Shown: positions 4,503-46,467 of the stretch, one piece after another
How the letters are laid out: each line of letters begins with the position of its first letter
Numbering within the stretch: position 1 is the stretch's first letter
Source: Yuukianura sp. NJ FZ-2021
Taxonomy: Eukaryota
NCBI GenBank assembly: GCA_046563655.1
Contig: CM102284.1
Coordinates: 1,674,001-1,738,000, forward strand
Reading direction: 5' to 3'
Length of the DNA: 64,000 nt
Notes under the pieces: model-generated
Databases searched by the model: none
The model's input: only the letters and a program-made list of their open reading frames with translations
Told to the model about the DNA's origin: nothing
Made by a program: the position numbers and the translations under genes

Positions 4503-5384
4503 TTTGAATTTCTAAGTCGGCCTTGAAATGTAAAAATTTCTTGCAATTTGATATCACGGCTTGTGCTCACGAAATTGTGTGTTTTCACTAGCGTACAAAC
4601 TTCAGAACAACGTGCTTGCATGTACTAAAAATGTTAATGAGGAATCACTATGGAATTATATCTTTCTTTTCCAGTATTATTTTTTAAACTTAGACTGAAT
4701 TTAAAATTGAAGAAACCAAAAGTTATTGACCTTACACTTTAAACAGTAAAGTTATGCCGCCAACCTAGTGAAATCGGAGACTTCTAGAATTGTATTAATA
4801 GAAAAGGAGGGTGTTAGGGTCAAGGGGCCTTTGGGTGACAATTGAAGTTACAACAAAGGAAAACAAATCGGAGCTTTTGAAAATAAGACTTATTTTTCAG
4901 AGTCCTTAAAGTTCCAAAGAAGATTTGGGACAAAAGAAGTTCACAAAAGAGGCAGACAGAAAGTTGGAACTTTTTTGAAATCGTGAGCTCAAAAAAAAAG
5001 AAATAATATTTCAATTCCAAATGGAATCTGAAAAAGGGTATTCGCTTTCAGGAACAAAATGCAGGCTGAGAAGTGTAAATGATGTGCCAACTGATCCAAT
5101 GTTGGAGTGACAACGCAGCAATTTGTCTAAAATCAAGGTTGCTACAGCGCCCATTTCATTACAAATGCGCTAACAGGTTAAGCCAACACTCCATTTTTTT
5201 TAAATCACTAAAAAACCTCTTTTGGACCACTCCTTTACCAATTTTGTTTTTTCACAACAATCTGTTGAAATCTTTTAATTTTCAAGTTTGAGTCATACTT
5301 TTGATTTCGGATTGCTAATGCAACGCAGCCGCGTCAAAGTGGAGTACACTTACAATGTTGAATTTTTAAAAATTTCAAATAATT

Positions 5385-6264
5385 TTAGAGATCCCTGTAC
5401 AAATTGGCGCTCATGGCGTATCGACGGTCATGTCCAGGAACTCCACGGTCGCGGAACACCAAATACGATACGGACTCTTCCCCGATGCTCCAGCGGATCG
5501 GGAAAACGATCCGACTAGTATGAATTTCCCCGCCTGTTCCAGCTTTGTACATATCCGAATGTCCACCAGCAGGAAATGCATATCGCTTATCTCCGCCAGA
5601 TTCATTGTCTCTAAACACAAGCGTTGAACCTTCGCTTCTTATAGTCCATCGACCAATTGTAAGCGAATCAGCGATCACACCCGAAACGGATTTTTTGGCG
5701 GCAACTTCAGTGTTTAATTTTGCAATTTGAGTTTCAAGTTCCGCAACCCTAGCGTTGAGTGCATCAATATTAAATATCTTCGTTTCCATTGCTATTATTT
5801 GGGCTTGAAGTTCTTCAAATTTTGAAAGCTTGGCTTCCAGTGCAGCCATTTTCGAATCGGTTGCATCGCATTTTGAACATTTTCTTTCGAGCTCTAGGAC
5901 TTTGAGTTTCTGTTCTTCAGAAAAAGTCGCCAATTTTGTTTCAATTGCAGCGTGCTTCAAATGCAGACTGTCAAGTTCATGGAACTTTGGAGTTGCGCAT
6001 GAGCTGATTTGTATTTCTGGCGAAGCAGGGATAATCTGCACAGTGAAGGTCGCCTGTTGTTGTGGCTTAACCTGAGTAGCATCTGTACAGAAAGTCAATA
6101 CTTAGTTTCTCAACAATGAAAAAAAATTATAAGAAGTTTTTGAACTTTACGAGCCTTTTTTTTAATTTTGAATTTCGGAAATTACCGTCGACTTCAGAAG
6201 TTGGACAACAACTGCAAAAGGCTAGCAGCGTCAATCCTAAAAAGAAACTCGAAGTTTTCCGCAT
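5385..6264 (-). CDS. Secreted coiled-coil protein with two C-terminal RW-x-I-x-x-E...LVFRD...D-x-RYA repeats
   Basis: Signal-peptide exon 6264-6186 (MRKTSSFFLGLTLLAFCSCC..., GTAAT donor) splices to exon 6082-5385. A heptad-rich segment precedes two ~45-aa repeats. A paralogue lies at 14633-15040. Confidence 0.8.
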
Positions 6265-6913
6265 TTTGTGTTAGTTTTATCTTAATACAAAAATTTAGAT
6301 TTTTTTTTCGTAAAACGAAGACTGCGAGCTGACTTGCGTCAAATGCATGCAAAACGGGAATAAAGTTCAACTGAATCTGAAGACAGGACCGGCAGTTTGA
6401 GCAATTAGGAAAGCAGTTTCACAATTTCGTTGTTCTGCAACTATTTAATGGCCTATTTATACAACTCGAATTAGCAAAGACAAGTTAGATCCGAGGTCAC
6501 AGGTTATACTGCACTGTGCGTCAAAGCTTCTTTCTCAGAAAACTTAAATTTAGTAATCATTTCCACTTAATCATCTGTCGGTTGCTGTGTGATTCAGTTT
6601 TTGTACAAACTCTTTGACCTGGAACAAAAAAAAAGTTTCTGCCACGAAAAAAATTCAAGCAAAAACTTTTTTTAGTCTGACGTTATAATCTAATCAAATG
6701 TTTCCAGTTTTTGTTTAATGCCATATTCTACAAATTCCGAACAAAATATTAGCATACAGTAACGCATTTGTGAATTATATTAACAAATGTTTCAGAAATT
6801 AAACTATTTGAAATGTCTGAATAACGTTGATTGTTAAGCTCGCTATAATGTTACTATCCCGGGGAAGAAATTTCTGGACGTAATTGTCGAAATCATTCGA
6901 GGACGAACTTTTT

Positions 6914-9900
6914 TCACGAAAATTGTCCAAAAGCAGAGTTGAATCGAAGGCCATGACTAAATTTTGGATGGCCTCTCTTATCATGTGAGTACGGAACAGG
7001 ACATACTCCTTCAAACTTAACTTTCAAATCTAAAAGTACAAGCAAAAAAACTATCAAAATCAAAATATGTTTAATCATATGCCGCAACTTAAAAAAACAA
7101 AATTTACCAGGATTTGTCATCTGCGCACACTGGAGATGACAAAGGTTATGGTATGTGGTGCCATCAGTACCGCAGAATGGCCGACGCTGTTTGTCACACG
7201 CACAGTTCACGCTATTACATTCTCCATTGTGCTTCAATTGAAGACCTAAAACCAAGGTCCGCAAACAAAAAAACATGATGTTTTTTCTACACCAGGTTGT
7301 CGAATAACTAGACGTATTTCGTTTTCTTAAAAAATTTGAGAAACTTTTTTCCTGTGGTAATTATTTTCTTGTAAAGCAATAGGAATTAGGGGAAAAAGTT
7401 ATTTAAAGCAAAATTTTTGCAAACCCCGAGTTATTAGACAACCTGTTGTAAGAAAAACAATTCCGTTGTCAATGAACCTTGCCTGAGACGTGTTTCAAAT
7501 TGTGTTGAAAGCAGTTTAAGAATTGTTTTTCTCTTTTTTTTTTTAATAATTTATGCAATTTAAAAACTGTTTTTTGAAAGAAATTTCGGTTACTTGGATT
7601 TTTCCTTTGTTCGCATTTGAGACCACACAGGTTTCCATATGTTTTACCATCAGTGCCACAGACAGGGTCATAGTTCAACGGGCAAATACAGTTACATTCA
7701 CCGTCGTGAGCTTTTTGCAAACCTGTAACGTAAAGGTTCCAATAAGTTTTAGGTGCTAATAAAAAATTTAGATTTTGTTTGATCTAAAAATTAGTAGAAA
7801 CTAAACGTACTCGGATTTTTCCTTTGAGCACATCTGAGTTCGCACTCGTTATCATACGTTGTCATATCCGTACCACAGACTGGGTTGTAGTTTGTTGTTC
7901 CCTTTGGACAAATGCAATTGTCACACTCTCCTTCGTACGCAAGGTGCAGATCTAACATTTGCAAAAATTTGAAACTTTAAAATTAAAATTAAAATATTTT
8001 AAAATTTTGCACATATGGAAGTTGTACAGGGTGTGTGAAGATTTAATGCAGCAACGCGGAGAGGTAATTTGAGATTTTTTGGGCGGGAAATCAAAATTTG
8101 AGCGGGTTTCGGCAACAACAACAATAGAGTTTGTTTACAACTGATCACGAAATCTTCTCCTGAGATTCAGCTCAGTTTTAGTTGGCAACCAGTTTCTAAG
8201 TTTTAATTGGTAACTTCTAATTTGTTAAAATCATCTTGGAGAGCCAGTCAACACACTACTTCATGCAGTAGGGTACTTTGTCTGTTGCTCATCAGCTGAA
8301 ATTGGCAAATCTAAAGGTGAGTGAAAAAAACGATTAACTTGATAACCAAAACCCATGAAAACCGGATAAAGTGTTGGTTCTTTAAGTGTGGCAGTAAATT
8401 CGCATGATATTTTTTTATATTTTAGGTTGAAAATGCCGAATAGGGTATTTTCATTGGCAGAACGTGTTTACGTTTAACAATGAAAACAACATAGGTTTAA
8501 AGTTTGTTCTATTTTTTTAAATTAAAGTGTAAAATTTTCCTAATAAAATTCTACGATGGTTCCGACAAGACCCCGAAGTGATCAATCGGATTTGGTGGTC
8601 AGACGAAGCCACATTCAATTTGGATTGAACCGTTAACCGGCACAACTGTGTCTACTACGGGAAGGAAAATCCAAACATTGAGGAATCTGTGAAAATGAAA
8701 TCGGTTGGACTGACAGTCTGGGCTGCGAATGAGGGAAATTCGTGTCCAAATTTGTGAAGTAGATTCGCTACAATGCTCTCTTTTTTGCCGACGTCAGCAC
8801 ACTCCTTTCACTCTCCCTTTTGCGCGGGGAAAGACCGCGGGCATTAAATCTTCACACACCCTGTACATTTAGAAATACGAGCATAGGTTTCATACACTGC
8901 TAATTTTGTACTGTAGTCTTAATTTTTCTTACTTGAATTTGTTTTCTGGGCGCATTCCAGCTCGCATTTGTTGTCATATGTCTTTCCATCTGTACCGCAA
9001 ACCGGGGCATAGATTAACGCGGCCTTTGGGCATGCGCAATTTGGGTCACATTCACCATTATAAGCAAGCTCCAATTCTATTAAGACATTCGCAAACTGAG
9101 TTTACACTAATGAAAATAATACATGTGACTTGCAATGTCATAGTCATAAGACCTACTTTTATCCATCCGTTGTGCACACTGTAGTTTACATTTGTTTGAG
9201 TAAGTTTTTCCATCGGTTCCGCAAACAGGTTGGTATTCCCCATTGCAAACACAATCACCACACCTTCCCTTGTAAGCTTCTTTAATTGCTACAAAGGAAA
9301 ATTTAAACTTCGTAGAATACCGAAGTACATGGTAAGAAAGTGAAGAATGAAATTTTACAATTAATTGTACACATATTTTGTATAAACTTACATGGATTTG
9401 TACGCTGTGTACATTCCAAGTCACATATATTTGGATACGTTTTTCCATCAGTTCCACATACTGGATCGTATACTGCTGGACAGAAACAGCCACATTCTCC
9501 CTTGTACTTTTCTCTAATTACTGAAATGCAAAAAATGTATGCAGTTTATCTACTTCAATTTGTCACAAACAGTTTGACCTTTGACCTTACATGGATTCCC
9601 AAGTTGGGCGCATCTCAAGTCACATTGATTGGAATAAGTGACATCGTCAGTTCCACATACTGGATCGAATATTGGTGGGCAGCCACAACCGCACTCCCCT
9701 TTGTGCAATTCCCTAATTGCTGAGAATTGTAAACAATTTTAAATAATAATGGAATACATGTGTATGTAAATAATTTGCATTTATATATAAATAATTCGTA
9801 AGTGTATATAAATAATTTTGCTTTTGGCCTAACATGGATTTTGTCGTTGTGCACATTTCAAAGTACAGAGATTTGGAAATGTCACTCCATTAGTTGCGCA

Positions 9901-11612
9901 TACCGGGTTCTTGTCGTGTGGACACTGGCAACATTCTCCGTCGCTCTGTTTCTTAAGTCCTGTGTGCAAAATTACAAATAAGTTCAGAAAATACAAGCAT
10001 TGGCAGCACAATGCTAAAAATTTTAAACAAAAATGTATAGTTGTTTTGAAGTTAAAAATTTCTGACCCGGAGTTTTCATTTGTTCGCATCTCAGTGCACA
10101 TGCGTTTCCATAACTTTTGTTGTCACTGCCACAGACTGGTTCGTAATTCAAAGGACAATTACAGTCACATTCACCAGCATGCAATTTGTGAAGGTCTAAA
10201 AAAATATAGGAGGAATCATAATACCAGTTTCGGAGTTCGGCTAATTTAGATATATTTAAGATTTGTACAAACTTGGATTTGATTTTTGTGCGCAATCCAG
10301 CAAACACTTATTTGCATATGTTTTTCTGTCGGATCCGCAAACGGGATTGTAGTTTGTTCTAGCACGCGGACATACACAATTGTCTCGACATTTGCCCTTG
10401 TACGCAAGCTTGAGTCCTGACATTGGACAAAGCAAAAGTTCAGATATAAAATTATCCCAAAAAAAAACGAAATCAAAATCTAAAATTTATCATTTTACCG
10501 GGATTTGAATTTTGGGCGCAGTTAAGGCGGCATAAATTTGAATATGTTGTACTGTCACTACCGCATACTGGATCGTACTCCTCTGAGCAAATGCAGTACA
10601 CTGAGCTGCTGTTAGGTCTACATTCGCCTACATATTGTACCTGTAGGGCTAAACAATTGGAAAGGCAAGGAAAATGTTATGTATAAAAGGTTTTCTAGAG
10701 CGTGATAAAATGATATTTTTTTAGACTGAAACAACTTTTGAACTTACAAGGGAACTTTTGTTTTTCACAGTTTAAGCCACATTCATTTGGATACGTTTTT
10801 CCATCCGTACCGCAAACGGGGTCATAAATATCAGCGCAGCTACAACCACATTCTCCATCATGTCTTTTCTTCAGCGCTTTAAATGATTCCAAGAATAAGT
10901 TGAAATGTATTTTAGTATCTTGAGGCGTAAAGGTCAGTACGCGATTTGAAAAAAAAAACGCGAGTTACAAACTAAATGGGAGCAAAATATGCTAGAATTC
11001 GTATTATGCTAAATATGCTATGAATATGAATATGCTAAAAGTGGTTTTAAGTCTACGTTTTAAGTTTGTAGTTAAGTTTAATAGAATATAATGTATAGTA
11101 TTACAGTAGTCGGTCTGTTGTGCACACTTCAAAAGACACTCGTTGTCATAAGTAATTCCATTAGTACCGCACACTGGTGCATAAATTTTGTACTTTTCAC
11201 ATGCACACTTCGAGCACACTCCGTAGTGGACCAGCTTCAACGCTGCAACATTAAACAGATTAAGGTTATATTTAACACATTAATAATTGTTTGATTTAAG
11301 AATTAATATAATAAAATAAAATATATTCATCACACGTAAGCGACAGCTATGGTTGATTTCCTATTTTGATTGCGTTTAGGTTATTTTTACCACACTACTG
11401 TTATGTATTACATATCATGTTAACGTGTCCTTACTTTTGTTGAAACGCTGAGCACATCCCAGGTCACATGTATGTGAGTACGTTTTACCATCGTTACCGC
11501 AAACCGGATCCGGAATTTGGTTGCAGTTGCAGGAATCTCTCCAGAAACTCCACTGCGCATGGCCAGTTCCAAGTAAAGTGACAAAAATTAAAATAACCTT
11601 AATAAATTCCAT
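6914..11612 (-). CDS. Multi-domain Kazal-type serine protease inhibitor (14 Kazal domains, 15 coding exons)
   Basis: Signal peptide [19 protein letters not shown], then 14 repeats of C-x-C-x(5-8)-P[VF]C[GA]xxxx[TS][YF]xxxCxLxC...GxC. Coding exons lie near 11612, 11242, 10877, 10648, 10416, 10195, 9959, 9719, 9520, 9288, 9076, 7951, 7722, 7245 and 7029. Confidence 0.95.
8027..8863. mobile_element. Tc1/mariner-type non-autonomous DNA transposon (MITE) in a Kazal intron
   Basis: Perfect 23-bp TIRs CAGGGTGTGTGAAGATTTAATGC (8027-8049) and GCATTAAATCTTCACACACCCTG (8841-8863), with TA on both flanks. Confidence 0.9.
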
Positions 11613-12457
11613 ACTAAACCAACCGCTTTTGAACAAGACAGCAACTGGTCGTTAAGCCTCGTTTACAATCGAGTAAATGCCAGTTTTGAATCCGTGTTTT
11701 ATGTCATAAAACAGCCTTGGTACAGGTCCATTACCCATCGCAACATCAAAACAACAGAGGCCAATGCTTGGGAACATTTAACCTGGAATAACCAGTTTTT
11801 AACAAAAGACACCAGTGAACGATAAAACTCCACCTTGTGTTTAAACAAAAGAGTTCAAAATACAAAAACACAATTACTGTACCAGACCTTTTTACAACTT
11901 TTCTCACGGGAAGTAATAAAAATTGTTTAAACTTTTTCGAAAAATTCCCGCGTTTAAAAACCTTAGCGTTCGGATTGGCGCATTTGCGTTTAAGAAATTC
12001 CAGTCAAGATTTTATGCCTTCCACGCGCCGGAGTTATAATTTTTCATAATTTTGATTTATTACTCTATTATGACTTAAAGTAGGTCAACTAATAAAACCA
12101 GAATTTATTATGCATAATAACTCCAATTATTCTAATTGAAAATTTTACATCCATGCGATTCTTGTGATAATCCAGAAAAATTTCACTGAGATTTTTTCCC
12201 TAGAAGCGTTATCTTGGAATCAAGGAATAAGTTTGGAATAAGTTTGAAAAACCAAGCGTTTGTGATCAACCGAAAACCAAAACAACCGAAATTGAAATTT
12301 TATTTACAAGAACCAAGTTATGATCGAATATGTGAAAAATTTGCTTAAACTTTCTAATAGAATTGAATACAAGGAGAAGAAAATGAAATGTATAGAATAA
12401 AATATAAACTTCTACTAACAGTTACTCATGCACACCGCGGGATCGTGGGTCCGTATA

Positions 12458-14632: not shown

Positions 14633-15040
14633 TCAGAGGTCCGTGTACAAATTGGTACTCAAGGCGTACCGACGGTCGTGTCCCGGAACTCCACCGTCAC
14701 GGAACACTAAGAACGATACGGATTCTTAACCGATGCTCCACCGAATCGGGAAAACGATCCGACTAGTATGAATTTCACCGCCTGTTCCAGCCATGTACAT
14801 ACTTGGTCCTGGTACTGGTCCAGCCTTCCAGCATCACATTCTTTCCAGTTTTTGGCCTTTGAGTTTCTGTTCTTCTGAAAAAGTTGCAAATTTTGTTTCA
14901 ATCGCAGCTTGTTTCAAATGCAAGCCGTCAACTTCATCTCGGAATTTCAGCGTTGCGCATGAGCTGGTTCGTATTTCTGGCGAAGCAGGGATAGTCTGCA
15001 CAGTGAGGCTGGCAATATTCTGCGGCTTACCCTGACTTCT
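14633..15040 (-). pseudogene. Degenerate duplicate of the secreted coiled-coil/repeat gene at 5385-6264
   Basis: High nucleotide similarity to 5385-5550 and 5880-6090. About 300 bp are deleted, WSIG-E has become WSIG-TAA, another in-frame TGA is present, and no signal exon is visible. Confidence 0.9.
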
Positions 15041-16280
15041 ATACAAACAGAAATTCATCCTTAGTTGCTCTCATAAACGGGAAAAAATTGGAAACATTTT
15101 TGTCTTTGTATTTAATGAGATAAACTTTCCTACCGTATTTTAACGTAAATAATACGCATTAGAATTGCACCCACTTGATTCATGCCAATTTTATCTGGCC
15201 ATAAAAAGAAAGAATATGTTTTTAAAGAACAACAAAATTTATTACCAAGAACTTACTTGAATTTGAAAATTGACGGTGTCATATTTCCATAAAATTGTAA
15301 ATTTTGATTTATTTTTTTGTTAAAGTTGATCACTTTGGGCCGGATCTTCTTTGCGCTATTCATAAAATGGCAAAATTACTTTTTCCTAAACGGAATTCTC
15401 TGTAAAGAAGAACATGTTAATAATTTGTTAACCAATTTAAAATAGAGTAACCCAGAAAAGAGTTCAAAGAAATTGATAGAAAGTAGAAAACTAGAAAAAT
15501 AGGTGAATTTTATTGAAAAACGTGGTTGACATTATGGTTCGCCTAAAAGTTAAGACTACGTGGACATATCCGAGTAGCTACTTTTCCCCCTTTCCTCTTG
15601 TAAATAATTAATTTTCTACTGGACGATGAGGAAGGAAGGACACAAGTTCTCAAGTTCTATTTTTTGCATTAGGTAATTGTATATGTCCATGGACTTTTTA
15701 TTTTTTGCACTCCAACTGAACAGAAGCGAAAGCAAGCCACTTGTGGAACTGTCCGTAAAAATAGTGTAGGTCGCCCGGGTTATTCTTTCGCGGTTGGACG
15801 TTGGAGCGAACAGTGGACAGCTCATTACCCGGCCAAAAAAAGTTTAGTCAACTGTGAAGTTCTGCTTAGTACGCCACACAAAGACTAAATTTTATCGTCA
15901 TGTACAAAAATTTGTCCAAGTACAAAAATGTACTTTATAAGGTGCACAAAGTTCCAATTTCTAAGTGCATAAAAGCGTTTTTCATTTTTTGTTGTGAAAA
16001 TTTTTTGTAAACTGGAGAATCCTGTCTAAGGAGCTTTTTAACAAAGGCTGGTTTCGGGTTTTGGAGGTAACTTTGAATGCCAAAATGAAGATGAAGTCCA
16101 TGTCACAGAATGCTGAAACTTTACAAAATTCATTAAACACCTATCCGAGAATCCATAAAAAAAATTTTGGCATCCTGTGACATGGACGTCATGTCCAAAT
16201 GTGTCACCAAAGTACATGAAGTTTTGATGGATATCATCACAATTTTTTGATTAAAAAATCAAAAAAATCCACGGGAACAG

Positions 16281-17188: not shown

Positions 17189-20086
17189 ATGGACAAAAAA
17201 ACTGCTTTCGAAGATGATTTGGCCAAAGTCGAAAATCAGTTGAAGCTCAAACAGGGACAAACCGTGGTTTCCAAATTACGAAAACAGAAATTGCATCTTT
17301 TACTAAAACTGAAAAAATATGAAGCGGTTGTTGATACTGGTGTTATGTTCCTGGGAGCAGAAGGACGCTTGGATCTCTATGTTTTCAAACACATTGTTGC
17401 AGCATACTGTCATGAAAAAAAGGTTGGTCACTTACCATAAAATCCGTAACTCCGCAAAAACCTAACATATTTTTGTGCAACAAAATTTTTAGTTCCAGGA
17501 TGGTTTGGATTTGATTGAAAAGTGGAGCAAAAATCAGAAAGAAGAAGCCTGGAAACTGCAAGAAATTCGTCAAGTCGTTCACAAGTGTTTGACTGGTGCT
17601 GGAAATGCAGTTGAATCGGTTGATCAATTGCTTGGAGTCCAGGAATTTAGCAGCGATGATGATGGCATTGACCCCGGCCTATGGAGGTTTACATTTCTAA
17701 ACAAAGTTTTTTAAACAAAACTGAGTTTTCTAAATCCGAATTTTCATTTTAGGTATCGTCCTCCCCCTGCTCAAACTGCAACGTATTTCCTCTGCCCGCG
17801 AATTTCAGACTCCACTCCATGCCTGTTTGGCGACAGTTGCTTAGCGGCTCACAGCAAAGAAGAACTGGAAGAGTGGAAAGCGAGAGCCAAAGGAGTAAGT
17901 CCGAGGTAAGTAAAAATATTTTTGAAAATTTTTAAGCCAAGGTTGGCTTAAAATTGGTAATTTTTTTTAAATATCCTTGACTCACATTTTGACTAAAAAT
18001 TTCTAAATTTTTAATTCTTTTTAAATCCTGTGGTACAGAACTGCTTTTCTGGAGTTCTTGTTGTGTTTAATAATTAATTATAAACCAACTTATTTTGATG
18101 TTATAGGTCAGAATCATACTTAAAAGCCGTTGGAATGTCAGGTCAAGGACAACGTGAAGGTTGTGGACCACGGTTGTCAAATGGCACTTGTGGTCCATGG
18201 TTACCCGGACCACCACCAAATACTCCATACTTGAAACAACTTATACTGGACTACTCGGATTCAGCAAAAAGCAAAGATTTTTGCACCAGTGTCGACGGTG
18301 TTAAATTGATGTAAGCCAATACTTTGCAATGCGGTGAATTTTTTGCACTTTTTCTCTCCACAAGTTTGCACTTTTCAAAATTTTGAACTATTTTGAAACT
18401 GACTAGATGGTCCGGTCCGCTTCAAGTTCAAGCAAATACATGCGAACATGTTTGGATTGTTTTGATTCGTTCACAACGAAAAGACACTTTGCGCACGATC
18501 ACTCTGCTTCACGATTTTGATCGAATCAATTTCCGTATATCCGAGGCCTATTTTTGTGATGACGGAAGTTTTTCACAACCAATCAATCTCATTGAATTTA
18601 ATACTTGCAATCACAAAAATGCTGTAAGTGGGTCACACGACCTTGACCATTGACCTTGGAACTTGACATGCAATTTTTGATCTTACAGGGAAAACTTCAG
18701 GTGCTAAGTACTTTCATTCCACAAAAGTTCCTCAATCGGACGTGCTACTACTACAGAGTCGGTTTCACTTTTCGTTCCGTCGGTACCGGAAAATTTTCGC
18801 AAATGGTTATACTGGACTTTAAAGAAAAACCGAAACTTGTTCAAGAGTTGAGTGTGTAAGATAACGGATACAAAAATTTAACACTTTCGCACAAAAAAAT
18901 TGACAAAAAAGTGATGACGGCGTAAACTTTTGTTTGTTTTTCTAAAAGGCTGGTCAATATTGAAACTGCTCAACCACCGGTTCCTGCACAGGCGCAATCT
19001 CAAACAACAACTACTGCTACTCCTACTCAAGTAACTACCGTCGAACCTGCTAAATCCTGCCCAATTTCTAATTTAGCGCAACAAAGTAAAGTGAAAGTTG
19101 TTGGAGAAGGTAGGCCATTGACCTATACAACATCGCAACCGTTACAACAATCGTTAACAACGATGCAACCGCAATTCGTAACGTCGCAACTACCGCTACG
19201 TTTTCAGCAACCGCTGGCTTCACAACAGCTACCGACGCAACAACCAGCACAAATTCAGCAACCGCTGACGTCACAATCGTTGCAAATTCACCAGCCGATG
19301 ACGTCACAGGCGTTACAACTTCAGCAACCGCTGACGTCACTATCGTCACAAAGTCAGCAACCTATGACGTCACTAGCGCCACAAATTCAGCAACCGTTTA
19401 CCTCGCAACTGTTACATCACCTACCATTGACGTCACAGCCTTTACAACTTCAGCAGCCGATGATCTCGCAACCGTTACAACTTCAGCAACCGTTGACCTC
19501 GCAATCGTTACAACTTCAGCAACTATTAACCTCGCAACATAATCATTATCCGCAGCATTCCTCAGCATCTCAGCATCTTTCACATATCCAGCAATCGCTA
19601 CCGTCGCAACAAGCGATGCATCTTCACCAAATACGTCTTCAGCAACCGTTGTCATTACAACCACAACCTAGTTTGGCAACAACTACTACGACATGTCTGC
19701 ATTGCCCGGTAGTTAACCACGTTAGTGAGTCTGTACCATTTCGCTACTACTGCGCTGCTCCTAGTCTTAGTCACGTTCAGCGTATCGTTCGGCCTCCGGT
19801 TGGCCAAGTTCCTGCCCATTCGCAACTTCTACCAGCTCACTTTCTATTAAACGGCAACGGATGTCACGCCTGTTGCCACCGACATCACGAACTTGAAAGA
19901 AGTGACACACGGTTGCCACTCAGAGACGCTCCACGCATGACGCAAGCCCGTCACCCGCCTGGATTCTCTGGCCCAACACATGTAACACCACAAGAGGAAC
20001 AAAACCACTCAGCAGAGGCATCAAATTTGCTTGATTTGGAACAACATCTTATTGGAAACTTCATGCACGAAATGCTCAATGATTAA
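17189..20086 (+). CDS. HELZ (helicase with zinc finger)-like N-terminal protein with CCCH finger and Gln/Pro-rich tail, lacking a helicase domain
   Basis: Seven exons (~17189-17422, 17493-17686, 17753-17905, 18107-18310, 18408-18623, 18689-18855, 18949-20086). Motifs WRYRPPP...FLCPRISDSTPCLFGDSCLAAHSKEELEEW, VDGVKL, ITLLHDFDRINFRI and YRVGFTFRSVGTGKFSQMVILDFKEKPKLVQ are colinear with the HELZ N-terminus. Confidence 0.8.
19120..19540 (+). repeat. 36-bp coding minisatellite (12-aa unit QQPLTSQSLQLQ)
   Basis: About 11 degenerate copies of CAGCAACCG(C/T)TGACGTCACAATCGTTACAACTT in the last exon of the HELZ-like gene. Confidence 0.85.
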
Positions 20087-20775
20087 TTTTTAAAAACAAT
20101 TATTGATTTTCAACGGAAAAATGTGTTAAACAAACCGAGTGCTTCAACATTTGTCGGAAAATACTCGTAAAACCCAATGCCATTTCTCAATGTATTTTGA
20201 TTCTCATGTACTTGTAGATAATATTTAGGTATATGTATATAATATGCACATATCACAGATTTAAATATTATAAACATAGTGTAACACTGAAATTTCGCAA
20301 AATTCTCAACTAAAACAAGTTAAGGTATTACTGGTTTTCTTGTTTTTCAATTTTAGGTGGTTTATAGGCTAATTATGGTTTTGAATATTTCGCGGTTTTT
20401 ATTATTTTAATTACAACCACTCTTACGTTTTTAAATATTGCTTTATTTGTATAAGGCGTAGCAGTTTAGTTTATTAATTGTTAGAATAGGTTAACATTTT
20501 TAATCTAACTATCATTAATTTGATTGTTGTTAATAATACTTTCATGGCCTTGCCATTGTAGTTAACTGTAACTCACTGGGAGTTGCAAACATTACGTTAA
20601 CAAATTGTTTGTTTCGGTCAAATCCTTTTAAAGCGGAGATCGACGTTCATGTTAGTAAATATCCCTAAAACGTTTACCGACTGTAACAAAATTATTAACC
20701 TAACAAGGTGTAACATACCTTGTTCGAACGATGACTTAATTAAATTAGCATAACAATTCTAACGGAAAACAAATT

Positions 20776-23105
20776 TTATCCTAAAGATTGAGCATTCCAT
20801 CTTCCGAAGTGAAAATCACGAACTTTGTTTTCAACCGGAAAACATTCCTCTTGTGAATGAAATTTGTGACTCTGTAGGGGAAATCCGAGACCAACCAAAA
20901 GATCTTTCAAAATTTCCCGCAAACTCGGATCCAAAAATCTCGATCTACTCCAAATTCCAACAGTTTCCCAACGATATTTGTTTGATCCAAAGACACTGCA
21001 ACTATACAGCATAAACCACTTCTCATGAGCTTTGTCAATACTCAACACAACCATCTTCGTATCTCCTAAAACAGAAATAAAATTAAAAATTAAAAAAAAA
21101 ATATAGAAAAAAAAATACTTTTTTGATGTTAACCATTTAGTGTCACTGCGTCCCACATAGAAGACACTGGACTCATCATCTTCGGAACGGTAATTGGAAC
21201 TTCAAAATGTTCAATTTTTCCTGAAGTAGAGTTTTTATGACTGAAAAAAAAAATTAAACTAGTTAGAAATATTTTTAACTAGTCAATCCGTTGTACCGCG
21301 GAGCTTGTACAACAGGATGACAAAAACAACTCTTGTATCCCGTGTACCCACGGAGTGTAACTTCCGTTTTTGTATTTTTGTATCCACAGAATTTGTGATG
21401 GGTGGTTACAATCACAGTGTTGTGAAGAAGTTACAGTGTTGTAACAGTTTAGTTACAATTTTGTAACCACAAGATTGTAACTAGGTGGATAGATATAGCA
21501 GAGTGGCAGTTACACTGTGTTGGTACAACAGATTGAGGTATAGCTCACTCACACAACAAGGACAAAGTCATAATGTTTTTATGTGAATGATTGATGATTT
21601 GTTTAATTGGTTTGGTCTAAAAATATTTTCATCAAAATTTCATGTCCTTCATACTTCTGTGTGTCAAACTTTTTTAACATGTTTTTGGAGTGAATCAACT
21701 ATGCAAATGAGGGACGTGTTCAGGTAATCAATGAAATGAAAAGAATTGTTTTCATTTCCCTTCTTTTTCTCGTTTAAAAAATATTCTTGGAGTTCCCGAA
21801 AAAAAAATTGTTTTTATTACGCAACTTTTTAGTCCGCTGATTCAATTCGTGAAAAAATACGTTCTCCATTGAAAGCCAATTACGCTGAACAGGAACTAAT
21901 TTACGTTAGTGTGATTAAAAACCAATGTTTTCAAGATACGAGATAAAAATGATTTTGGAGACAAAATGAATTCTTTTTAAACTGCTACTGTACTTGTAAT
22001 AAACTGGTGCAAGCAACTATATACAGATCAAGCAAACTGTCTCACAGTACCCCAAGCTTCTTCCGCTAACGAGTTTGAACTATTTAGAGGTCGAAGGTCA
22101 AATCCGCTCAAACTACAAATCGGGGCAAATGCAGCAGTTGTAAATCTTTAGTGTAACAATTTATCGCATTTTAAGATATCCGCCTGTAACTCTATTGCTG
22201 ACAGCGTTACAAAGTTAGTAGTACAAACGTTTAATTTTGAAATTCATGGAACTTCTGTACACTTTTCTGCATGAGACGTCGACAGACGCCACGGGGTTTT
22301 TAATTCAAATGAATTAGATGACGCTGCAAATACATGAACAAATGAGTGATGACAATACAGATTTGACATTTTCCTTTGAATAAAAAGCCCAAGTCAACTT
22401 CTGGTTTTTGTTAACTTTCAACATGGATTTTCCATTCGATTAAACCAAACAACTAGAGTGCGTTCAAAACGTGGATTCAATGGAAATGTGCAAACAAGAA
22501 ACCGGACACACGCCTGCTATTTCGCAACTCAAAAAAAAATGTCCGTAAATCAAAGGATGCCGCAACTGGGTAAGTCTTGAATATAATATCGTAGTGCCAA
22601 CTTTTTAAAGATAGTTAGATGATTGTTTTTTTTTAATTCAAAATTTCTTACGATTCAAAAGATTTGAATTTCCCGCTTTTAGCAAAATCTGCATCAGGAA
22701 CGTAGTTGAGTTGATTGCACTTGAAATTGGGTTCGACGGGGTCAAATCCACGGTCGCTTGCTGCAAATTCATGGAGGTACCATTGACCCATGATCTGCAA
22801 AAAGTGGAACAAATTGAGCAATAAGTTACTTTGAAGTTACTTTGTGTACCAAAAACTGAAAAGTTAGCACAAGAAGTGAGAAAGTTGCCCAAAATTTGCA
22901 TAACAAAAGAAAGCAGTTTTGCAAACAAATCATGTTCCATGTGCAAAAAAAAATATTGCAAAAATTTACTGTTGCGTCTGACCTTGTTGAGGTTTAGGCC
23001 ATGTCTCGGCGTCAATCTTGGAAAGTGACACTGTGCATTTTCTTGAGCATGTGCGAATAAAGCAACGTAGTAAGTTAGGACAAGTAGAGTTAACCTGGTA
23101 ACCAT
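20776..23105 (-). CDS. Lipocalin / apolipoprotein D-like secreted protein
   Basis: Signal peptide plus QC...PRLTPRHGLNLNK (exon 23105-22984). Exon 2 carries IMGQWYLHE (lipocalin GxWY motif); exon 3 lies at ~21240-21135; the last exon has VVLSID...WFMLYSC...GIWSRSRFLD (SCR2/SCR3-like). Confidence 0.85.
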
Positions 23106-24711
23106 GGCAACGTAAAGTGTCAAATTCAATGGTTACTATAGTTATGGCGGTTACACTTTATCGTTACGACGACAGTTTATGTTGAATTACCTTGTCCAAG
23201 ATCAAGTTCAGACTGATCCTGAGCCAAGACCGTGACTTGGCATTTGTAGCTTGCTGAGCAGTGACGCTCCTGGTCAGTGCCAAATAGGTTCATGACGTCA
23301 TCTCCCATTAGTTACTCCCTTTAATGTTTAAGTTTCCATTTAGCGGGTATCAATTTGCGAAATTAATACTTTCCAAAACTCGCAAAAAAATTGCCAAAAT
23401 TTGCACGGAACCTCCTGCTTCTCATGCAATGATCTCTCCGCCCCCAAATTCCGACCCGAAATCGCGTGTAAACGAACTCTCTTAAACGTTTACCAATGTT
23501 TAAATTTTTTGCACAATTGCAAAAATTGCTTGCCAAAAAATTGCAATACAAGACAACGTTATGGAAACGAGCCGGCGGTATTAACTTGTTCCCGGATTTT
23601 CTACTACTTGGCACGTCTTTGCAAAAATGATCTCTCCCTCTTACCCCGCCCCCATTTTGTGCCAATAGGCTCGCAAACGTTGATCTTGAAAAAGATGAAC
23701 GGACAATAATTAAAACATCTGAGGGCGTCAAATTAACAAATTCCAAATTCATCAGCAGAACTATTCGGATCATGACACTTCTGTTGCATTCAAAAGCAGG
23801 TTTTTCTTTTCAGGAATCAGAAATTCAAAGAATACAAAAAACGAAGAGTAAATTTTCCAACGTTGTTCGGGAAAGCCATGAATTCTTTGAAACCTATTTC
23901 ACTTTAGTTTTTAGTTTAAAACAAGAAAAAAAATGAAATTAAATTTCGAATTCAGTTACTTTTCGTAGTGAAAATTAAGAGCACTTGGAGCTTCCATGTT
24001 TCACATTTAAAAATCGCCACTTTTCAAAAAAATATTTCAAAAAACTGAGCAACATTTACAATATGGAGTTTGTTGACGTTTAAACTTCTCATTTTTGAAA
24101 TCACTGAAATGCGTGTTGATGTTGAATTAAGAAAAATAACAATAAGAGGTTGCCCTTTGCCGGATGAAGAGTTTTTTTTTACACCTCCGTTTCCAATCAA
24201 AAACAGGATATTAAAGACGTAATTTTCTTGCAACTTCCAAAAAATGCGGAAGGAAACTGAAGTTATGTATTAGAAAGCAATTCCAGAATCAAAATTTTTT
24301 GTTGCTGTTTTTATGATAGAATCATTTTTTTTGTTATACTTTTATGTTGTGTTTATAATGAAACCTCAGCGCAGTTTGGTCGATTTCCTATGTACTTTAA
24401 AACAGCTTTCATACTAAACCCCAGTTCTCCATGCATTTATGTTATTACGTTAGTTGAATTTTGATGCACCATGTAAAATGCAATTACAACTTTCAACATC
24501 AATAAAAACAAGTTCAATCCACTTTCCATTGAGAAAGGTCAAGTTACAATTGAATGATGCCACACAACACAGTAACCAAAGGCGGGATTAGATACTATAG
24601 TTTGATTTTTTATTTCTGACCCTTTGTTTGCTGCAAAATAATTTCGATCTTTGTATTTATCGTTAGTTCTAAAAACTTTCGTCACTTCCGTAATAGAAAA
24701 CGACGGCAAAA

Positions 24712-27700
24712 CAGGGTTCGTAAAAAGACGTCAATTTCGGGGAAGTGACACAAATAACATAAATTAACTAAAATACGTAAGTTACACAACCTTGAAATAG
24801 TACTGTTGGACGCCGCATCATCACAAAATCAATAATAAATTAGCTACGTATAGAGGTTGGAATATAGTACACTGTTTTAAGGAATATGAAACAAAACAAC
24901 AAAAGGCGACAGAGAGGCGACAACTGACCTGTTTAAAAATTTACCTGTTCTCTAACTTTTTGACGTGACCAAATTTTTAAAAATTCACTTGTACACTTAC
25001 TTTTTGAGGATTTGGAATTTTGAAAAATTCAGCTGAAATTCAACTTTTGGATATATTTGCCTTGCCGAGGATTCACGCGTAACTCTACCCTCTTGAAATG
25101 TTGGTCTCGTGAAAAATTTACCTGTTCTCTAACTTTTTGACGTGACCAAATTTTTAAAAATTCACTTGTACACTTACTTTTTGAGGATTTGGAATTTTGA
25201 AAAATTCAGCTGAAATTCAACTTTTGGATATATTTGCCTTGCCGAGGATTCACGCGTAACTCTACCGTCTTGAAATGTTGGTCTCGTGAAAAATTGACCT
25301 GTTCTCTAACTTTTTGACGTGACCAAATTTTTAAAAATTCACTTGTACACTTACTTTTTGAGGATTTGGAATTTTGAAAAATTCAGCTGAAATTCAACTT
25401 TTGGATATATTTGCCTTGCCGAGGATTCACGCGTAACTCTACCCTCTTGAAATGTTGGTCTCGTGAAAAATTGACCTGTTCTCTAACTTTTTGACGTGAC
25501 CAAATTTTTAAAAATTCACTTGTACACTTACTTTTTGAGGATTTGGAATTTTGAAAAATTCAGCTGAAATTCAACTTTTGGATATATTTGCCTTGCCGAG
25601 GATTCACGCGTAACTCTACCCTCTTGAAATGTTGGTCTCGTGAAAAATTTACCTGTTCTCTAACTTTTTGACGTGACCAAATTTTTAAAAATTCACTTGT
25701 ACACTTACTTTTTGAGGATTTGGAATTTTGAAAAATTCAGCTGAAATTCAACTTTTGGATATATTTGCCTTGCCGAGGATTCACGCGTAACTCTACCCTC
25801 TTGAAATGTTGGTCTCGTGAAAAATTGACCTGTTCTCTAACTTTTTGACGTGACCAAATTTTTAAAAATTCACTTGTACACTTACTTTTTGAGGATTTGG
25901 AATTTTGAAAAATTCAGCTGAAATTCAACTTTTGGATATATTTGCCTTGCCGAGGATTCACGCGTAACTCTACCCTCTTGAAATGTTGGTCTCGTGAAAA
26001 ATTGACCTGTTCTCTAACTTTTTGACGTGACCAAATTTTTAAAAATTCACTTGTACACTTACTTTTTGAGGATTTGGAATTTTGAAAAATTCAGCTGAAA
26101 TTCAACTTTTGGATATATTTGCCTTGCCGAGGATTCACGCGTAACTCTACCCTCTTGAAATGTTGGTCTCGTGAAAAATTTACCTGTTCTCTAACTTTTT
26201 GACGTGACCAAATTTTTAAAAATTCACTTGTACACTTACTTTTTGAGGATTTGGAATTTTGAAAAATTCAGCTGAAATTCAACTTTTGGATATATTTGCC
26301 TTGCCGAGGATTCACGCGTAACTCTACCCTCTTGAAATGTTGGTCTCGTGAAAAATTGACCTGTTCTCTAACTTTTTGACGTGACCAAATTTTTAAAAAT
26401 TCACTTGTACACTTACTTTTTGAGGATTTGGAATTTTGAAAAATTCAGCTGAAATTCAACTTTTGGATATATTTGCCTTGCCGAGGATTCACGCGTAACT
26501 CTACCCTCTTGAAATGTTGGTCTCGTGAAAAATTGACCTGTTCTCTAACTTTTTGACGTGACCAAATTTTTAAAAATTCACTTGTACACTTACTTTTTGA
26601 GGATTTGGAATTTTGAAAAATTCAGCTGAAATTCAACTTTTGGATATATTTGCCTTGCCGAGGATTCACGCGTAACTCTACCGTCTTGAAATGTTGGTCT
26701 CGTGAAAAATTTACCTGTTCTCTAACGTTTTGACGTGACCAAATTTTTAAAAATTCACTTGTACACTTACTTTTTGAGGATTTGGAATTTTGAAAAATTC
26801 AGCTGAAATTCAACTTTTGGATATATTTGCCTTGCCGAGGATTCACGCGTAACTCTACCGTCTTGAAATGTTGGTCTCGTGAAAAATTGACCTGTTCTCT
26901 AACTTTTTGACGTGACCAAATTTTTAAAAATTCACTTGTACACTTACTTTTTGAGGATTTGGAATTTTGAAAAATTCAGCTGAAATTCAACTTTTGGATA
27001 TATTTGCCTTGCCGAGGATTCACGCGTAACTCTACCCTCTTGAAATGTTGGTCTCGTGAAAAATTGACCTGTTCTCTAACTTTTTGACGTGACCAAATTT
27101 TTAAAAATTCACTTGTACACTTACTTTTTGAGGATTTGGAATTTTGAAAAATTCAGCTGAAATTCAACTTTTGGATATATTTGCCTTGCCGAGGATTCAC
27201 GCGTAACTCTACCCTCTTGAAATGTTGGTCTCGTGAAAAATTGACCTGTTCTCTAACTTTTTGACGTGACCAAATTTTTAAAAATTCACTTGTACACTTA
27301 CTTTTTGAGGATTTGGAATTTTGAAAAATTCAGCTGAAATTCAACTTTTGGATATATTTGCCTTGCCGAGGATTCACGCGTAACTCTACCGTCTTGAAAT
27401 GTTGGTCTCGTGAAAAATTGACCTGTTCTCTAACTTTTTGACGTGACCAAATTTTTAAAAATTCACTTGTACACTTACTTTTTGAGGATTTGGAATTTTG
27501 AAAAATTCAGCTGAAATTCAACTTTTGGATATATTTGCCTTGCCGAGGATTCACGCGTAACTCTACCCTCTTGAAATGTTGGTCTCGTGAAAAATTTACC
27601 TGTTCTCTAACTTTTTGACGTGACCAAATTTTTAAAAATTCACTTGTACACTTACTTTTTGAGGATTTGGAATTTTGAAAAATTCAGCTGAAATTCAACT

Positions 27701-27859
27701 TTTGGATTATTTGTTTTCAGTGGAAGGCGCCATCACATGTGTGTACGGAAGGAATAGTTGAAAATGACATAAATTACATCCCCTTTGAATATGACGTATA
27801 TGACTTATGTAATTTACGTAACTTACATTAGGTACATAAATTACAATTTACGAACCCTG
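24712..27859. mobile_element. hAT-like non-autonomous transposon enclosing a satellite array
   Basis: 13-bp TIRs CAGGGTTCGTAAA (24712) and TTTACGAACCCTG (ending 27859). 8-bp flanking duplication CGGCAAAA / CGGCAGAA with one mismatch. Subterminal ACATAAATTA and TACGTAA motifs occur near both ends. Confidence 0.8.
24935..27707. repeat. 177-bp tandem satellite, ~15.7 nearly identical copies
   Basis: AAAAATT(T/G)ACCTGTTCTCTAAC recurs at 24935, 25112, 25289 ... 27590. I saw only three variable positions. Confidence 0.98.
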
Positions 27860-39193: not shown

Positions 39194-39877
39194 CTAGTTG
39201 AGTCTGTTGAATCGTCGACCTCTCATTTGCATTTGATGCATCAGCTGAGTTCCACTGCTGACTCCAAGCAGTGTTTTGCAAACGGAGCACCGATGCTGAA
39301 TATCCGTGCACATTCTGGCAGCAGTTGAATTTGCTTTGCTCATCACAAAGAAGCCAACGAGAAAAACGATGAGAAAGACAGGCATGACAGCCAGTGGAAT
39401 AAATGTTTCTCCGATGAGGGTTAGCAGGATGAAGAAAACAATAAAGACAACTGCTGCCATTCCATAACAGGCATACACTTTCTGGGATACTCCTTGTCGG
39501 ATGTTCCGGTTCTCCACTTCTGTTAACTGAGTAACTGCCGTGTTCTTGCATGTGGGACAGACAACAATGACTGGATTCCGTCCATTTTGACTGATGGCGG
39601 CATTAACTGCCTGAGCAGCTAGTATAGATTCGCCTACACCGCCTGCTTGATTTGAGAATGGTATAGGTTGCATTTCCATTCCAAAGTTGTATGGCGGAAG
39701 AGCCATTTGATTCAATGGCATTTGGAACTCTCCAAAGTTGGATGATCGTAAGAAACCGGACTCCGAATGACTCGAAGCACTAGGACCGGTATAAGGTGGT
39801 GGTGGTTGATTGGTGATGCTATCAGTGAGTTCATGTTGACCTCTTGATGGACCCGCAATTTCGTTTTCGGTATCCAT
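39194..39877 (-). CDS. LITAF-domain protein, paralogue 1
   Basis: N-terminal PPPPY and LPPY motifs; VVCPTC...hydrophobic segment...DIQHRCSVCKTLLG. Probable 5'UTR exons at ~40262-40364 and from ~40541. Confidence 0.88.
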   Translation of the reverse strand: MDTENEIAGPSRGQHELTDSITNQPPPPYTGPSASSHSESGFLRSSNFGEFQMPLNQMALPPYNFGMEMQPIPFSNQAGGVGESILAAQAVNAAISQNGRNPVIVVCPTCKNTAVTQLTEVENRNIRQGVSQKVYACYGMAAVVFIVFFILLTLIGETFIPLAVMPVFLIVFLVGFFVMSKANSTAARMCTDIQHRCSVCKTLLGVSSGTQLMHQMQMRGRRFNRLN

Positions 39878-39942
39878 TCTACAAAAAAATATGTGAACAT
39901 TTACATCGAAGCTATCAATGAAGTGAAAAACACTGGTTTAAA

Positions 39943-41593: not shown

Positions 41594-42253
41594 TTAAAAC
41601 AAGCTGTGTTGGAATCCGTAGTTGAAACGGAAACGTGGCATCTCCTGAACTCCATTGCTGACTCCAAGGAGTGTCCGGCAGACAGAGCAGTGGTGCTGAA
41701 TATCCTTGCACATCGCCGCTTGCGCCGTTGCTGTTTTGCGCATGCCATAGTACCCCCAATACAGAACCAAAAGAAAGATGGGCAATATGAACAAAGGAGC
41801 GAAACTTTCACTGATGATGCTATCTCCAATGAAGAATACAAAGACGATAACAGCAAACCAACGAATCCTGTTCTCGGCATTTGACCATGTCTGAGTCATT
41901 GTAGTATTTTCAATTTCCGTAATCTGCGAGACTGTGGTGTTCATGCATTTTGGGCAGACGACAGTAACAGGATTCCTTCCGTTTTGGCTAATAACTGCTG
42001 CGGCAGCTTGGGCTGCAAGAATCGGATTGACACCTCCGTGACCTTGTTCTGATCCTGGTGGTGGATTGAACCCAACAGGATTTGGGTTGTATGGAGCCTG
42101 ATCCTGTTGCATCTGAAACTGGGGATTGTAAGGTTGCGGCTGCGCTGGTGGAGCTTCTGGGTTGTAATTGAATTGCCCTACACCAGGATACTGCGGAGGC
42201 TGCTGCTGATTTTCGTTGTCACCGACGGAATTTGAAGTTTTCTCGGGAATCAT
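41594..42253 (-). CDS. LITAF-domain protein, paralogue 2
   Basis: Starts MIPEK just after a TTAG acceptor; PPQY motif; CPKC...DIQHHCSVCRTLLG. Confidence 0.88.
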   Translation of the reverse strand: MIPEKTSNSVGDNENQQQPPQYPGVGQFNYNPEAPPAQPQPYNPQFQMQQDQAPYNPNPVGFNPPPGSEQGHGGVNPILAAQAAAAVISQNGRNPVTVVCPKCMNTTVSQITEIENTTMTQTWSNAENRIRWFAVIVFVFFIGDSIISESFAPLFILPIFLLVLYWGYYGMRKTATAQAAMCKDIQHHCSVCRTLLGVSNGVQEMPRFRFNYGFQHSLF

Positions 42254-42305
42254 GCTTTCTAAATGAAAAATACTATGTAAGTACACCGGAAACCGGATTT
42301 GAACC

Positions 42306-42455
42306 AATATTTGGCTGAAGTTGCAGTTTCATTCTGCAGTTCGATGTGGTGGGAGATGGATGTGTAGGTGGTGGAAAGTGGTGAAAGTTAGTTACATTAC
42401 ATCCACCACCCACCACATCTAATTGCAGAACGAAACTGCAATTTAGCCCAATATT
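42306..42455. mobile_element. Small palindromic MITE in the 5' intron of LITAF paralogue 2
   Basis: AATATTTGGCTGAAGTTGCAGTTTCATTCTGCAGTTCGATGTGGTGG pairs with CCACCACATCTAATTGCAGAACGAAACTGCAATTTAGCCCAATATT. It is absent from the equivalent intron of paralogue 3. Confidence 0.7.
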
Positions 42456-45967: not shown

Positions 45968-46467
45968 TTTCCTACTCAGAAAAAAAAAACAAAAAACAAA
46001 AACAAATTGTCAAATTTTCATGAAGTGTCAAGAATAAGGTAAACAAATGAAAGCTACCGTAACGGTACAAACAAATATCAATTGTTAAAGTCTCCTGATT
46101 ATAAAATATAAAATAATAACTTACCAGTTAACCGTTTCACTGTGAAAGTGTTTTTTAGTGTACGGTGGTTTCCAGTTGCTTTAAAATCCGATTAAAAAAC
46201 CCACCCCTCGTCACAACAACCACAAATTATGATAGCATGTGTTTTTGTTATAATCCATCCTCTCCTTCACTTGCGAATTGCGATTTGCGAATCGCAGATT
46301 AACACAAAAGAAGTGGGGTTGAAGTACGGCCACTGAGATGCCTGTACCCATTTGACTACAGTTAGGCTAGTCGTAATAAGTTTGTTTTTTATTGTTATTA
46401 ATAAATATTTTTATTGGTTGTTTTTTTTCAGTACTGGATGTAAAAAATATTTATTCTACTTTTTTTT

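Follow-up and report, generated by a model that had tools for sequence, protein, structure and literature searches.

A predicted helicase-less gene of the HELZ/HELZ2 family with a disordered, repeat-bearing tail in Yuukianura sp.

Within a 64,000-nucleotide stretch of DNA from Yuukianura sp. NJ FZ-2021 (assembly GCA_046563655.1, contig CM102284.1, positions 1,674,001 to 1,738,000 of the forward strand; this whole stretch is called the window), seven predicted exons at 17189-20086 (+) encode a protein that appears to retain the complete pre-helicase module of HELZ, i.e., a helical TPR-like N-terminus, a W-x-Y-R-P-P-P motif, a CCCH finger, a helix and an Ig-like beta-sandwich. From its sequence, the gene is best described as a new domain-architecture variant of the known HELZ/HELZ2 family, and the helicase-less architecture is conserved in a second, deeply diverged species, which is represented by a metagenome contig of 14,110 bp (L001). 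We consider it very probable that this is a genuine stand-alone helicase-less gene of the family. The fuller reading, a functional invertebrate protein-coding gene of the HELZ/HELZ2 superfamily in which the module and a disordered tail would work together as an adaptor or scaffold, is held as probable, and the adaptor or scaffold mechanism taken by itself is tentative and somewhat more likely wrong than right. No published helicase-less relative of HELZ was found in a literature search conducted mostly at the level of abstracts.

The gene model and its homology to HELZ and HELZ2

Joined by script, the seven exons gave one frame of 768 codons that is closed by a single stop at its end, running from an ATG at 17189 to a TAA at 20084-20086 on the plus strand. 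The six introns are all GT-AG and 65-201 nt long. Exon 1 (17189-17422; 78 codons, ending in phase 0) opens with the start codon and encodes the beginning of the helical N-terminal region, and exon 2 (17493-17686) carries the remainder and ends in the W and the split R codon of WRYRPPP, the motif being divided by intron 2. In exon 3 (17753-17905), the YRPPP motif is followed by the CCCH finger and then by the AHSKEELEEWKARAK helix. The finger, at 17793-17852, has exact C-x8-C-x5-C-x3-H spacing and ends in AHSKEELEEW. Exon 4 (18107-18310) consists of a G/P-rich spacer and a helix (PNTPYLKQLI...VDGVKL) that runs into the beta domain. Exons 5 (18407-18623; 72 full codons) and 6 (18689-18855) encode the first and second halves of the Ig-like beta-sandwich, respectively, the latter with a G-x-F-x-Q-x-V-I-x-D-F signature in GKFSQMVILDFKEKPKLVQ, the GKFSQMVILDF...LVQ segment. 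Exon 7 (18949-20086; 379 codons including the stop) is a low-complexity tail without a helicase. The original prediction had described WRYRPPP, the CCCH finger with AHSKEELEEW, the GKFSQMVILDF...LVQ segment and exons 1-6, and all of them were present where it had placed them.

The exon 2 acceptor at 17493 is backed by the alignment with L001 (FQDGLDLIEKWSK vs YQESLEILERWSK). The predicted 18855/18949 junction is the sole phase-compatible join of exons 6 and 7, and the same junction is found in L001. Retention of intron 6 would bring a stop within 1 codon in the window or 8 codons in L001; since the frame is stopped at once, that product would be without a helicase as well. The 379-codon open frame sits in DNA of 36-43% guanine plus cytosine. 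Scans for poly(A) and promoter signals near the stop codon were uninformative. The long open frame and the profile E-values obtained against 2559 six-frame open reading frames (ORFs) put the gene and its homology signal far beyond chance.

Pfam searches with all seven exon translations gave no domain above threshold, and zf-CCCH (PF00642) was not reported for exon 3 at E<=1. The finger is homologous to the Pfam-passing fingers of three retrieved sequences, P0126, P0130 and P0147. These came from a profile of exon 3 (window and L001), which was scored against 1.84 billion representative proteins and gave 173 matches at E<=1e-3; many of the best ones were multi-finger CCCH proteins that scored via several fingers. 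When the other exons were compared by blastp with 150 listed exon 3 matches, a subset of the 150 also matched exon 6 or 5, the match lying beyond the finger and consistently spaced from it, with exon 5 matching the HELZ fragment P0147 at E 1.7e-4 in this set. Pfam was run on 17 matches, comprising the collinear exon 5/6 subset plus P0110, P0095, P0128, P0019, P0002 and P0003, the last two being the top multi-finger matches. AAA_11 and AAA_12 were found after the finger in six of the 17 (P0054, P0064, P0095, P0123, P0126 and P0134), and two helicase cores with RNB and OB_HELZ2 were found in two (P0110 and P0120), the others being N-terminal fragments or multi-finger proteins. P0064 and P0123, a scallop/periwinkle pair, are both named 'probable helicase with zinc finger domain' by NCBI; P0130 is a frog fragment, P0054 is from a millipede and P0134 from a hydrozoan.

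A hidden Markov model (HMM) built from 13 HELZ/HELZ2 N-modules was run on the 2559 ORFs (>=20 residues) of the window and L001. Exon 3 was matched at E 2.5e-20 in the window and 2.1e-18 in L001, exon 6 at 2.6e-8 and 5.3e-9, and exon 5 at 6e-4 and 1.5e-3, respectively. The matches to these three exons are collinear in both genes, nothing further was found below E 0.1, and exons 1, 2 and 4 gave no match to the model. By blastp, the joined exons 1-6 aligned with P0130 (residues 116-388 on 290-525, E 2e-18) and P0064 (125-388 on 205-428, E 3e-14; E 8.5e-19 for L001 against P0064), whereas the match to the HELZ2 protein P0120 was weaker (E 1e-10). The HELZ alignments cover ~250-280 residues, and exon 4 falls inside them. 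Two short patterns agree with this: W-x-[YFH]-R-x-P-P is common to 24 retrieved proteins, and the signature G-x-[FY]-x-[QE]-x-[ILV][ILV]-x-[DN]-F, present in exon 6, is common to 10 HELZ/HELZ2 proteins. As a pair they are common to the HELZ matches, the HELZ2 matches, the window gene and the L001 gene. Hence, the N-terminal ~390 residues are, on sequence similarity, homologous to the HELZ N-terminal module, and the predicted HELZ similarity of the spliced protein proved significant (blastp E 2e-18; HMM matches to exons 3, 5 and 6).

The order of elements ahead of the helicase is the same in HELZ and in the window gene: a helical N-terminus (a weak match), W-x-[YFH]-R-x-P-P, a single finger, a helix and the beta-sandwich. 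Both have AHS-x-EEL-x-EW after the finger, a beta-sandwich ending in G-x-F-x-Q-..-DF-...-P-x-L-x-Q and a long low-complexity C-terminal region. Unlike HELZ, the window gene is without the AAA_11/AAA_12 core, PAM2 and LxxLAP, and without the C2H2 'jaz' finger that lies upstream of the CCCH finger in the mollusc HELZ P0126. It has ~45 additional G/P-rich residues in exon 4, and its protein is 768 residues long compared with ~1700-1950 for HELZ. In HELZ2, as described in PMC10516660, two UPF1-like helicase cores flank an RNB exoribonuclease, and alternating C2H2/CCCH fingers lie at the N-terminus. The window gene shares with it W-x-Y-R-x-P-P, a CCCH finger and the beta-sandwich, which in HELZ2 carries G-x-Y-E-Q-W-x-V-x-D-F directly before helicase 1. 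It differs from HELZ2 in having one finger and no RNB, OB_HELZ2 or helicases, and its similarity to HELZ2 is weaker than that to HELZ.

The fold of the module was assessed by proxy. P0149, a 467-residue HELZ-like fragment, was folded with AlphaFold2 from an alignment of 21 rows; by blastp mapping, its residues 23-283 align to window residues 142-389. The model has a mean predicted local distance difference test score (pLDDT) of 71, in which the finger and a long helix occupy ~20-85 and a beta-sandwich, modelled at pLDDT ~90, spans 133-286. In Foldseek and an all-against-representatives search, the best structural neighbours of this model were ASH/PapD-like Ig sandwiches: the CEP192 SPD-2 domain 7ptb (Z 9.8, root-mean-square deviation 2.6, 112 aligned residues), ciliary central-pair proteins (Z 8.1-8.7) and a HYDIN PapD-like domain (Z 6.8), with many unrelated Ig-like domains close behind in the ranking. 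No helicase accessory domain stood out in the fold searches, though the sandwich may still be related to one, and a PDB sequence search with P0149 gave nothing at E<=0.1.

A constrained module and a changing tail

L001 was reached via a word-index protein search with exon 5, in which the single match among 3 candidates was the L001 read-through ORF P0001. Exons 1-6 lie in the same order on L001, with tblastn identities of 45, 30, 71, 55, 67 and 67%. The L001 gene was modelled as a 959-codon frame whose six introns, all GT-AG, agree with those of the window gene in codon position and phase, and exons 1, 3, 5 and 6 are equal in length in the two (234, 153, 217 and 167 nt, respectively). Over the modelled exons, amino acid identity is 41% for exon 1, 71% for exon 3, 38% for exon 4 (whose acceptor in L001 has an in-phase alternative at 4395), 66% for exon 5 and 67% for exon 6; the module from motif to motif is 62% identical over 211 aligned columns. 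The tail exon begins 82-93 nt past exon 6 in both genes, in equal phase. The L001 orthologue thus resembles the window gene in its identical exon-intron layout, its lack of a helicase and its long disordered last exon. No L001 ORF outside the gene matches the window, and wider synteny was not seen.

In the Nei-Gojobori comparison of the two genes, the proportion of synonymous differences (pS) was 0.76-0.95 in every exon and is saturated, suggesting that the two species are far apart. The proportion of nonsynonymous differences (pN) was 0.19 in exons 3, 5 and 6, 0.31 over exons 1-6 and 0.53 in exon 7. Saturated silent sites together with low pN show strong purifying selection on the N-terminal module, and the tail evolves fast while the module is constrained. 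The original prediction had proposed a comparison of selection between relatives, and it came out in favour of purifying selection on exons 1-6, although the ratio of nonsynonymous to synonymous rates (dN/dS) could not be computed, pS being above the Jukes-Cantor limit.

These values bear on the idea that the locus is a pseudogene, the decaying remainder of a HELZ copied only in part, or that the repeat in exon 7 has merely held open a frame that arose by chance. The repeat does open other frames across 19068-19667 (a plus-strand ORF of 142 residues and minus-strand ORFs of 97 and 89 residues), and no annotated protein match was found. However, splice sites and frames are intact in both species, silent sites are saturated with pN at 0.19-0.31, and the frame stays open for ~60 codons before and ~190 codons after the repeat, which makes a pseudogene or chance frame scarcely credible.

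The tail of the window gene opens with ~60 T/Q/P-rich residues. A tandem array at 19249-19523 (+) follows (Tandem Repeats Finder: period 33 nt, 8.4 copies, 74% matches, score 249), encoding 11-residue Q/P/T/S units of the QQPLTSQSLQL type. By reading of the translation, weaker copies begin at ~19130, giving roughly 9-11 units. Past the array lie an H/Q-rich stretch and then ~170 non-repetitive residues with a Cys/His cluster. The ~11 repeats ascribed to exon 7 earlier are there in about that number, but the exon does not go straight into repeats and then stop, with ~60 residues before the array and ~170 non-repetitive ones after it. Single-sequence AlphaFold2 modelling of exon 7 gave a mean pLDDT of 39, and the sole element with raised confidence was a predicted C-terminal amphipathic helix (...NLLDLEQHLIGNFMHEMLND; 19991-20080 (+), exon 7 residues 348-377, pLDDT 52-70), which aligns loosely with SHELLEHLIQGIIDSF of L001.

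The two tails are unlike in composition: Q 17.7%, L 13.2%, P 11.1% and S 10.3% in the window, compared with S 11.9%, P 11.7% and G 10.6% in L001. Compared directly, they showed no significant similarity (best E 0.18 and 0.29, though collinear), and the L001 tail had no tblastn match in the window (best E 2.2). The S/P/G/R-rich L001 tail is ~190 residues longer, has no counterpart of the 11-residue repeat and ends in a UBA domain (PF00627, 29.2 bits vs a cut-off of 22.4; L001 6753-6842 (+), residues 556-585 of the 5088-6869 translation). Pfam found no UBA in exon 7 or in the 46 downstream plus-strand ORFs at 20107-24764 of the window, and no family at E<=1 in exon 7. Regular-expression searches of both proteins gave no PAM2-like or LxxLAP motif, and exon 7 bore no likeness to HELZ tails among the 150 exon 3 matches (best blastp E 0.37). 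The description of the helicase as replaced by a Gln/Pro repeat was not borne out for the pair, since the repeat is specific to the window lineage, whereas in the orthologue a P/S/G-rich tail leads up to a terminal UBA. Either the UBA or the Q-repeat tail may be the ancestral state.

Absence of the helicase, origin and neighbourhood

Around the gene, the window takes in 17 kb on the upstream side and 44 kb on the downstream side. Across its six frames, no Walker A or DEAx-type motif was found except one G.GK[TS] inside an aldo-keto-reductase ORF, and the claim that none follows exon 7 was thereby extended to all 64 kb. The UPF1-like core of HELZ carries a Walker A of the form GxxGxGKT and a DEAA box. 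In tblastn with five HELZ helicase cores, the best value was E 0.67 for the window and 0.15 for L001, and Pfam found no AAA_11/AAA_12, RNB or OB_HELZ2 in the exon translations. Exons 1-6 might still be the start of a full-length HELZ that continues in helicase exons beyond the window, exon 7 being an alternative terminal exon; the window stops 44 kb downstream, and more distant exons are conceivable. However, the introns are only 65-201 nt long in a gene-dense region, and the downstream 44 kb is filled by a satellite and unrelated ORFs (LITAF-like, aldo-keto reductase, F-box and C2H2 finger). In addition, neither the window nor the 7.2 kb downstream on L001 showed any similarity to a helicase, and the tail exon follows exon 6 after 82-93 nt in the same phase in both species. 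We regard an alternative 3' end as very unlikely.

In a tree of the module from motif to motif, built by maximum likelihood from 14 rows and 216 columns, the window and L001 sequences paired (100/97) on a long stem of 1.35 substitutions per site. The pair attached beside a long-branch hydrozoan sequence (80/85), outside the HELZ2 clade (94/98) and the main HELZ clade (81/91). The tree leaves the donor family, HELZ or HELZ2, ambiguous; HELZ is favoured only by better pairwise scores and the weak N-terminal match. The label 'HELZ-derived' in the original prediction is accordingly sound as to homology with the HELZ module, and an origin inside HELZ is no more than possible, the long branch being placed in neither family.

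This placement could also mean that the module is HELZ2-derived or belongs to a third ancient branch, perhaps the form before fusion with the helicase, as the pair lies in neither clade and attaches near their split with the long-branch cnidarian sequence (80/85). Such an independent lineage is improbable. The position resembles long-branch attraction, blastp scores are better to HELZ (2e-18, 3e-14) than to HELZ2 (1e-10), and HELZ alone gives the weak helical match at the N-terminus. Moreover, with two members known and none among annotated proteomes by word search, a young lineage-restricted gene is suggested.

Gene fission is another way to arrive at a module without a helicase: no intact HELZ would exist, and the N-module gene and a separate helicase gene would be ancestral halves acting as a complex. 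The break falls exactly at the start of the helicase-proximal region, the opening residues of exon 7 can still be aligned to where the common module ends, and the whole pre-helicase module of HELZ is retained. Fission nevertheless seems unlikely to us, as both species have a long tail exon, conserved in position, after exon 6 rather than a short end, and the long branch relative to all HELZ sequences (stem 1.35) is easier to reconcile with relaxed or shifted constraint on a paralogue than with a conserved half of a single-copy gene. A stand-alone helicase-less member of HELZ/HELZ2 with its own tail is the reading that we prefer, the label 'paralogue' in the original prediction being putative.

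Searches for further members of the family gave weak evidence of absence: a word-index search with the exon 3 alignment scored 28 candidates with none at E<=0.1, and one with exon 7 scored 8000 candidates with none at E<=1e-3. The ESM Atlas gave no usable match with exon 5. The gene appears lineage-restricted in these sequence searches. Two read-through ORFs, P0019 (116 residues) and P0055 (144 residues), have the finger region closest to the window/L001 finger (P0019: 54% identity, tblastn E 1.6e-14). P0055 seems to end where window intron 4 lies and P0019 seems to start at intron 2; they may be HELZ exons or further helicase-less family members.

Several other features were observed in the window. 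A satellite lies at 24935-27713, 4.8 kb downstream of the gene, with a 177-bp unit in 15.7 copies (99% matches) and a sub-period of ~44 bp. Upstream, at 7472-11651 (-), at least 10 short ORFs show the Kazal-type pattern C..Y.PVCG[TS]DG.TY.N.C.L.CAQ; the one ORF of this array that was checked, 10259-10486, matched Pfam Kazal_1 with 36 bits, and the array is probably a multi-Kazal protease-inhibitor gene or tandem family. Similar ORF translations on both strands (ISPPVPA[LM]YI..., ...KQAAIETK...) at 5414-6101 and 14710-15070, ~9 kb apart, appear to represent a dispersed repeat or duplicated gene fragment. Five alike minus-strand ORFs whose N-termini are rich in proline, with 'PPPPY(P/T)G' (39197-39937, 41597-42328, 43793-44545, 45431-46009 and 54334-54894) look like a tandem family; two that were checked carry a LITAF-like zinc-ribbon at 21.4 and 22.5 bits, just under the Pfam cut-off of 23.8. 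Near-identical signal-peptide-like starts (HFNRG[VI]GHILRTMK[FL]LIT...) with similar downstream exons at 49076-50206 and 51574-53171 (+) indicate a putative local tandem duplication. Further downstream are an aldo-keto-reductase exon at 56748-57236 (+) (PF00248, 90 bits), a 485-residue single-exon ORF with an F-box at 58334-59788 (-) (26 bits) and a C2H2 zinc-finger gene at 61729-63945 (+) (zf-C2H2, 57 bits at 63285-63608). A ZAD was suspected at 61729-62522 from a ZAD-like CRLCG ... ICATC pattern in the first two ORFs of this gene, and Pfam found none; a ZAD, if real, would suggest that the source is an arthropod.

Possible function and significance

Without an ATPase, the protein would be unable to remodel RNA or act as a helicase, and an adaptor or scaffold is the most economical reading. 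CCCH fingers generally bind RNA. In the window protein, the finger would contact either RNA or another protein, with the beta-sandwich perhaps supplying one more RNA or protein contact. Lineage-specific effector contacts would be provided by the disordered tail, through multivalent Q-rich repeats and the terminal helix as a docking motif in the window protein, and through ubiquitin binding by the UBA in the L001 orthologue. The 11-residue Q/P/T/S unit has expanded in tandem in the window lineage's tail.

PMC6769256 describes HELZ as a UPF1-like superfamily 1 helicase whose C-terminal half is disordered, carries a PAM2 motif, joined in the human protein by LxxLAP motifs, and recruits CCR4-NOT and PABP. 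In the same paper, an N-terminal fragment with the finger and helicase is reported to lack CCR4-NOT binding and decay of a tethered reporter, and the N-terminal fragment alone is reported not to bind NOT1, NOT3 or PABPC1. Since the effector activity of HELZ sits in its C-terminal half, the retained module would have some other function. It is also possible that the protein is a decoy that competes with HELZ for ligands of the module. An RNA-binding adaptor, a decoy and a condensate-forming protein, the roles named in the original prediction, are all candidates.

Several points weigh against the reading as a helicase-less HELZ/HELZ2 member that acts as an adaptor or scaffold, or against parts of it. 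The gene model is predicted from DNA sequence, and the best Pfam match of exon 3 is zf-CCCH_DUS3L, at 18.6 bits and below the cut-off of 30. The HMM members were picked via exon 3 and partly via exon 6 or 5, which makes the exon 3 E-value circular and the others somewhat inflated. At the N-terminus, within the 150-protein set chosen through exon 3, the matches of exons 1-2 to residues 1-105 of scallop HELZ (collinear, E 0.009) and to the fragment P0148 (E 0.006-0.05) are marginal. RNA binding is presumed from the kind of finger present, the beta-sandwich matches, being to a modelled proxy and to a generic, common fold, give no function, and no tail function appears demonstrably conserved between the orthologues, given their unlike tails and a UBA in L001 alone. 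The family has two members, the window and L001 genes, in everything searched, few for a judgement of its breadth and age. Finally, elsewhere in the genome there may be a canonical HELZ, or the helicase half as a gene of its own, the evidence covering the 64-kb window and L001.

There is a slim chance that the gene represents an old third branch of HELZ/HELZ2, in which the finger and beta-sandwich module alone would act as an RNA-to-ubiquitin (UBA) or RNA-to-effector adaptor, either as a form that pre-dates fusion with the helicase or as an antagonist of HELZ. If true, this would give the first handle on the role of the uncharacterised N-module.

To our knowledge, no function has been assigned to the region of HELZ ahead of the helicase. 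A natural protein in which purifying selection has preserved the pre-helicase module and nothing more of HELZ would show that the module has a function independent of the ATPase, and the gene offers a small construct for finding the ligand of the N-module. The gene would also illustrate one route from a helicase gene to a non-enzymatic adaptor whose disordered tail changes quickly, with Q-rich repeats in one lineage and a UBA in the other. The gene being apparently lineage-restricted, its wider impact would be moderate.

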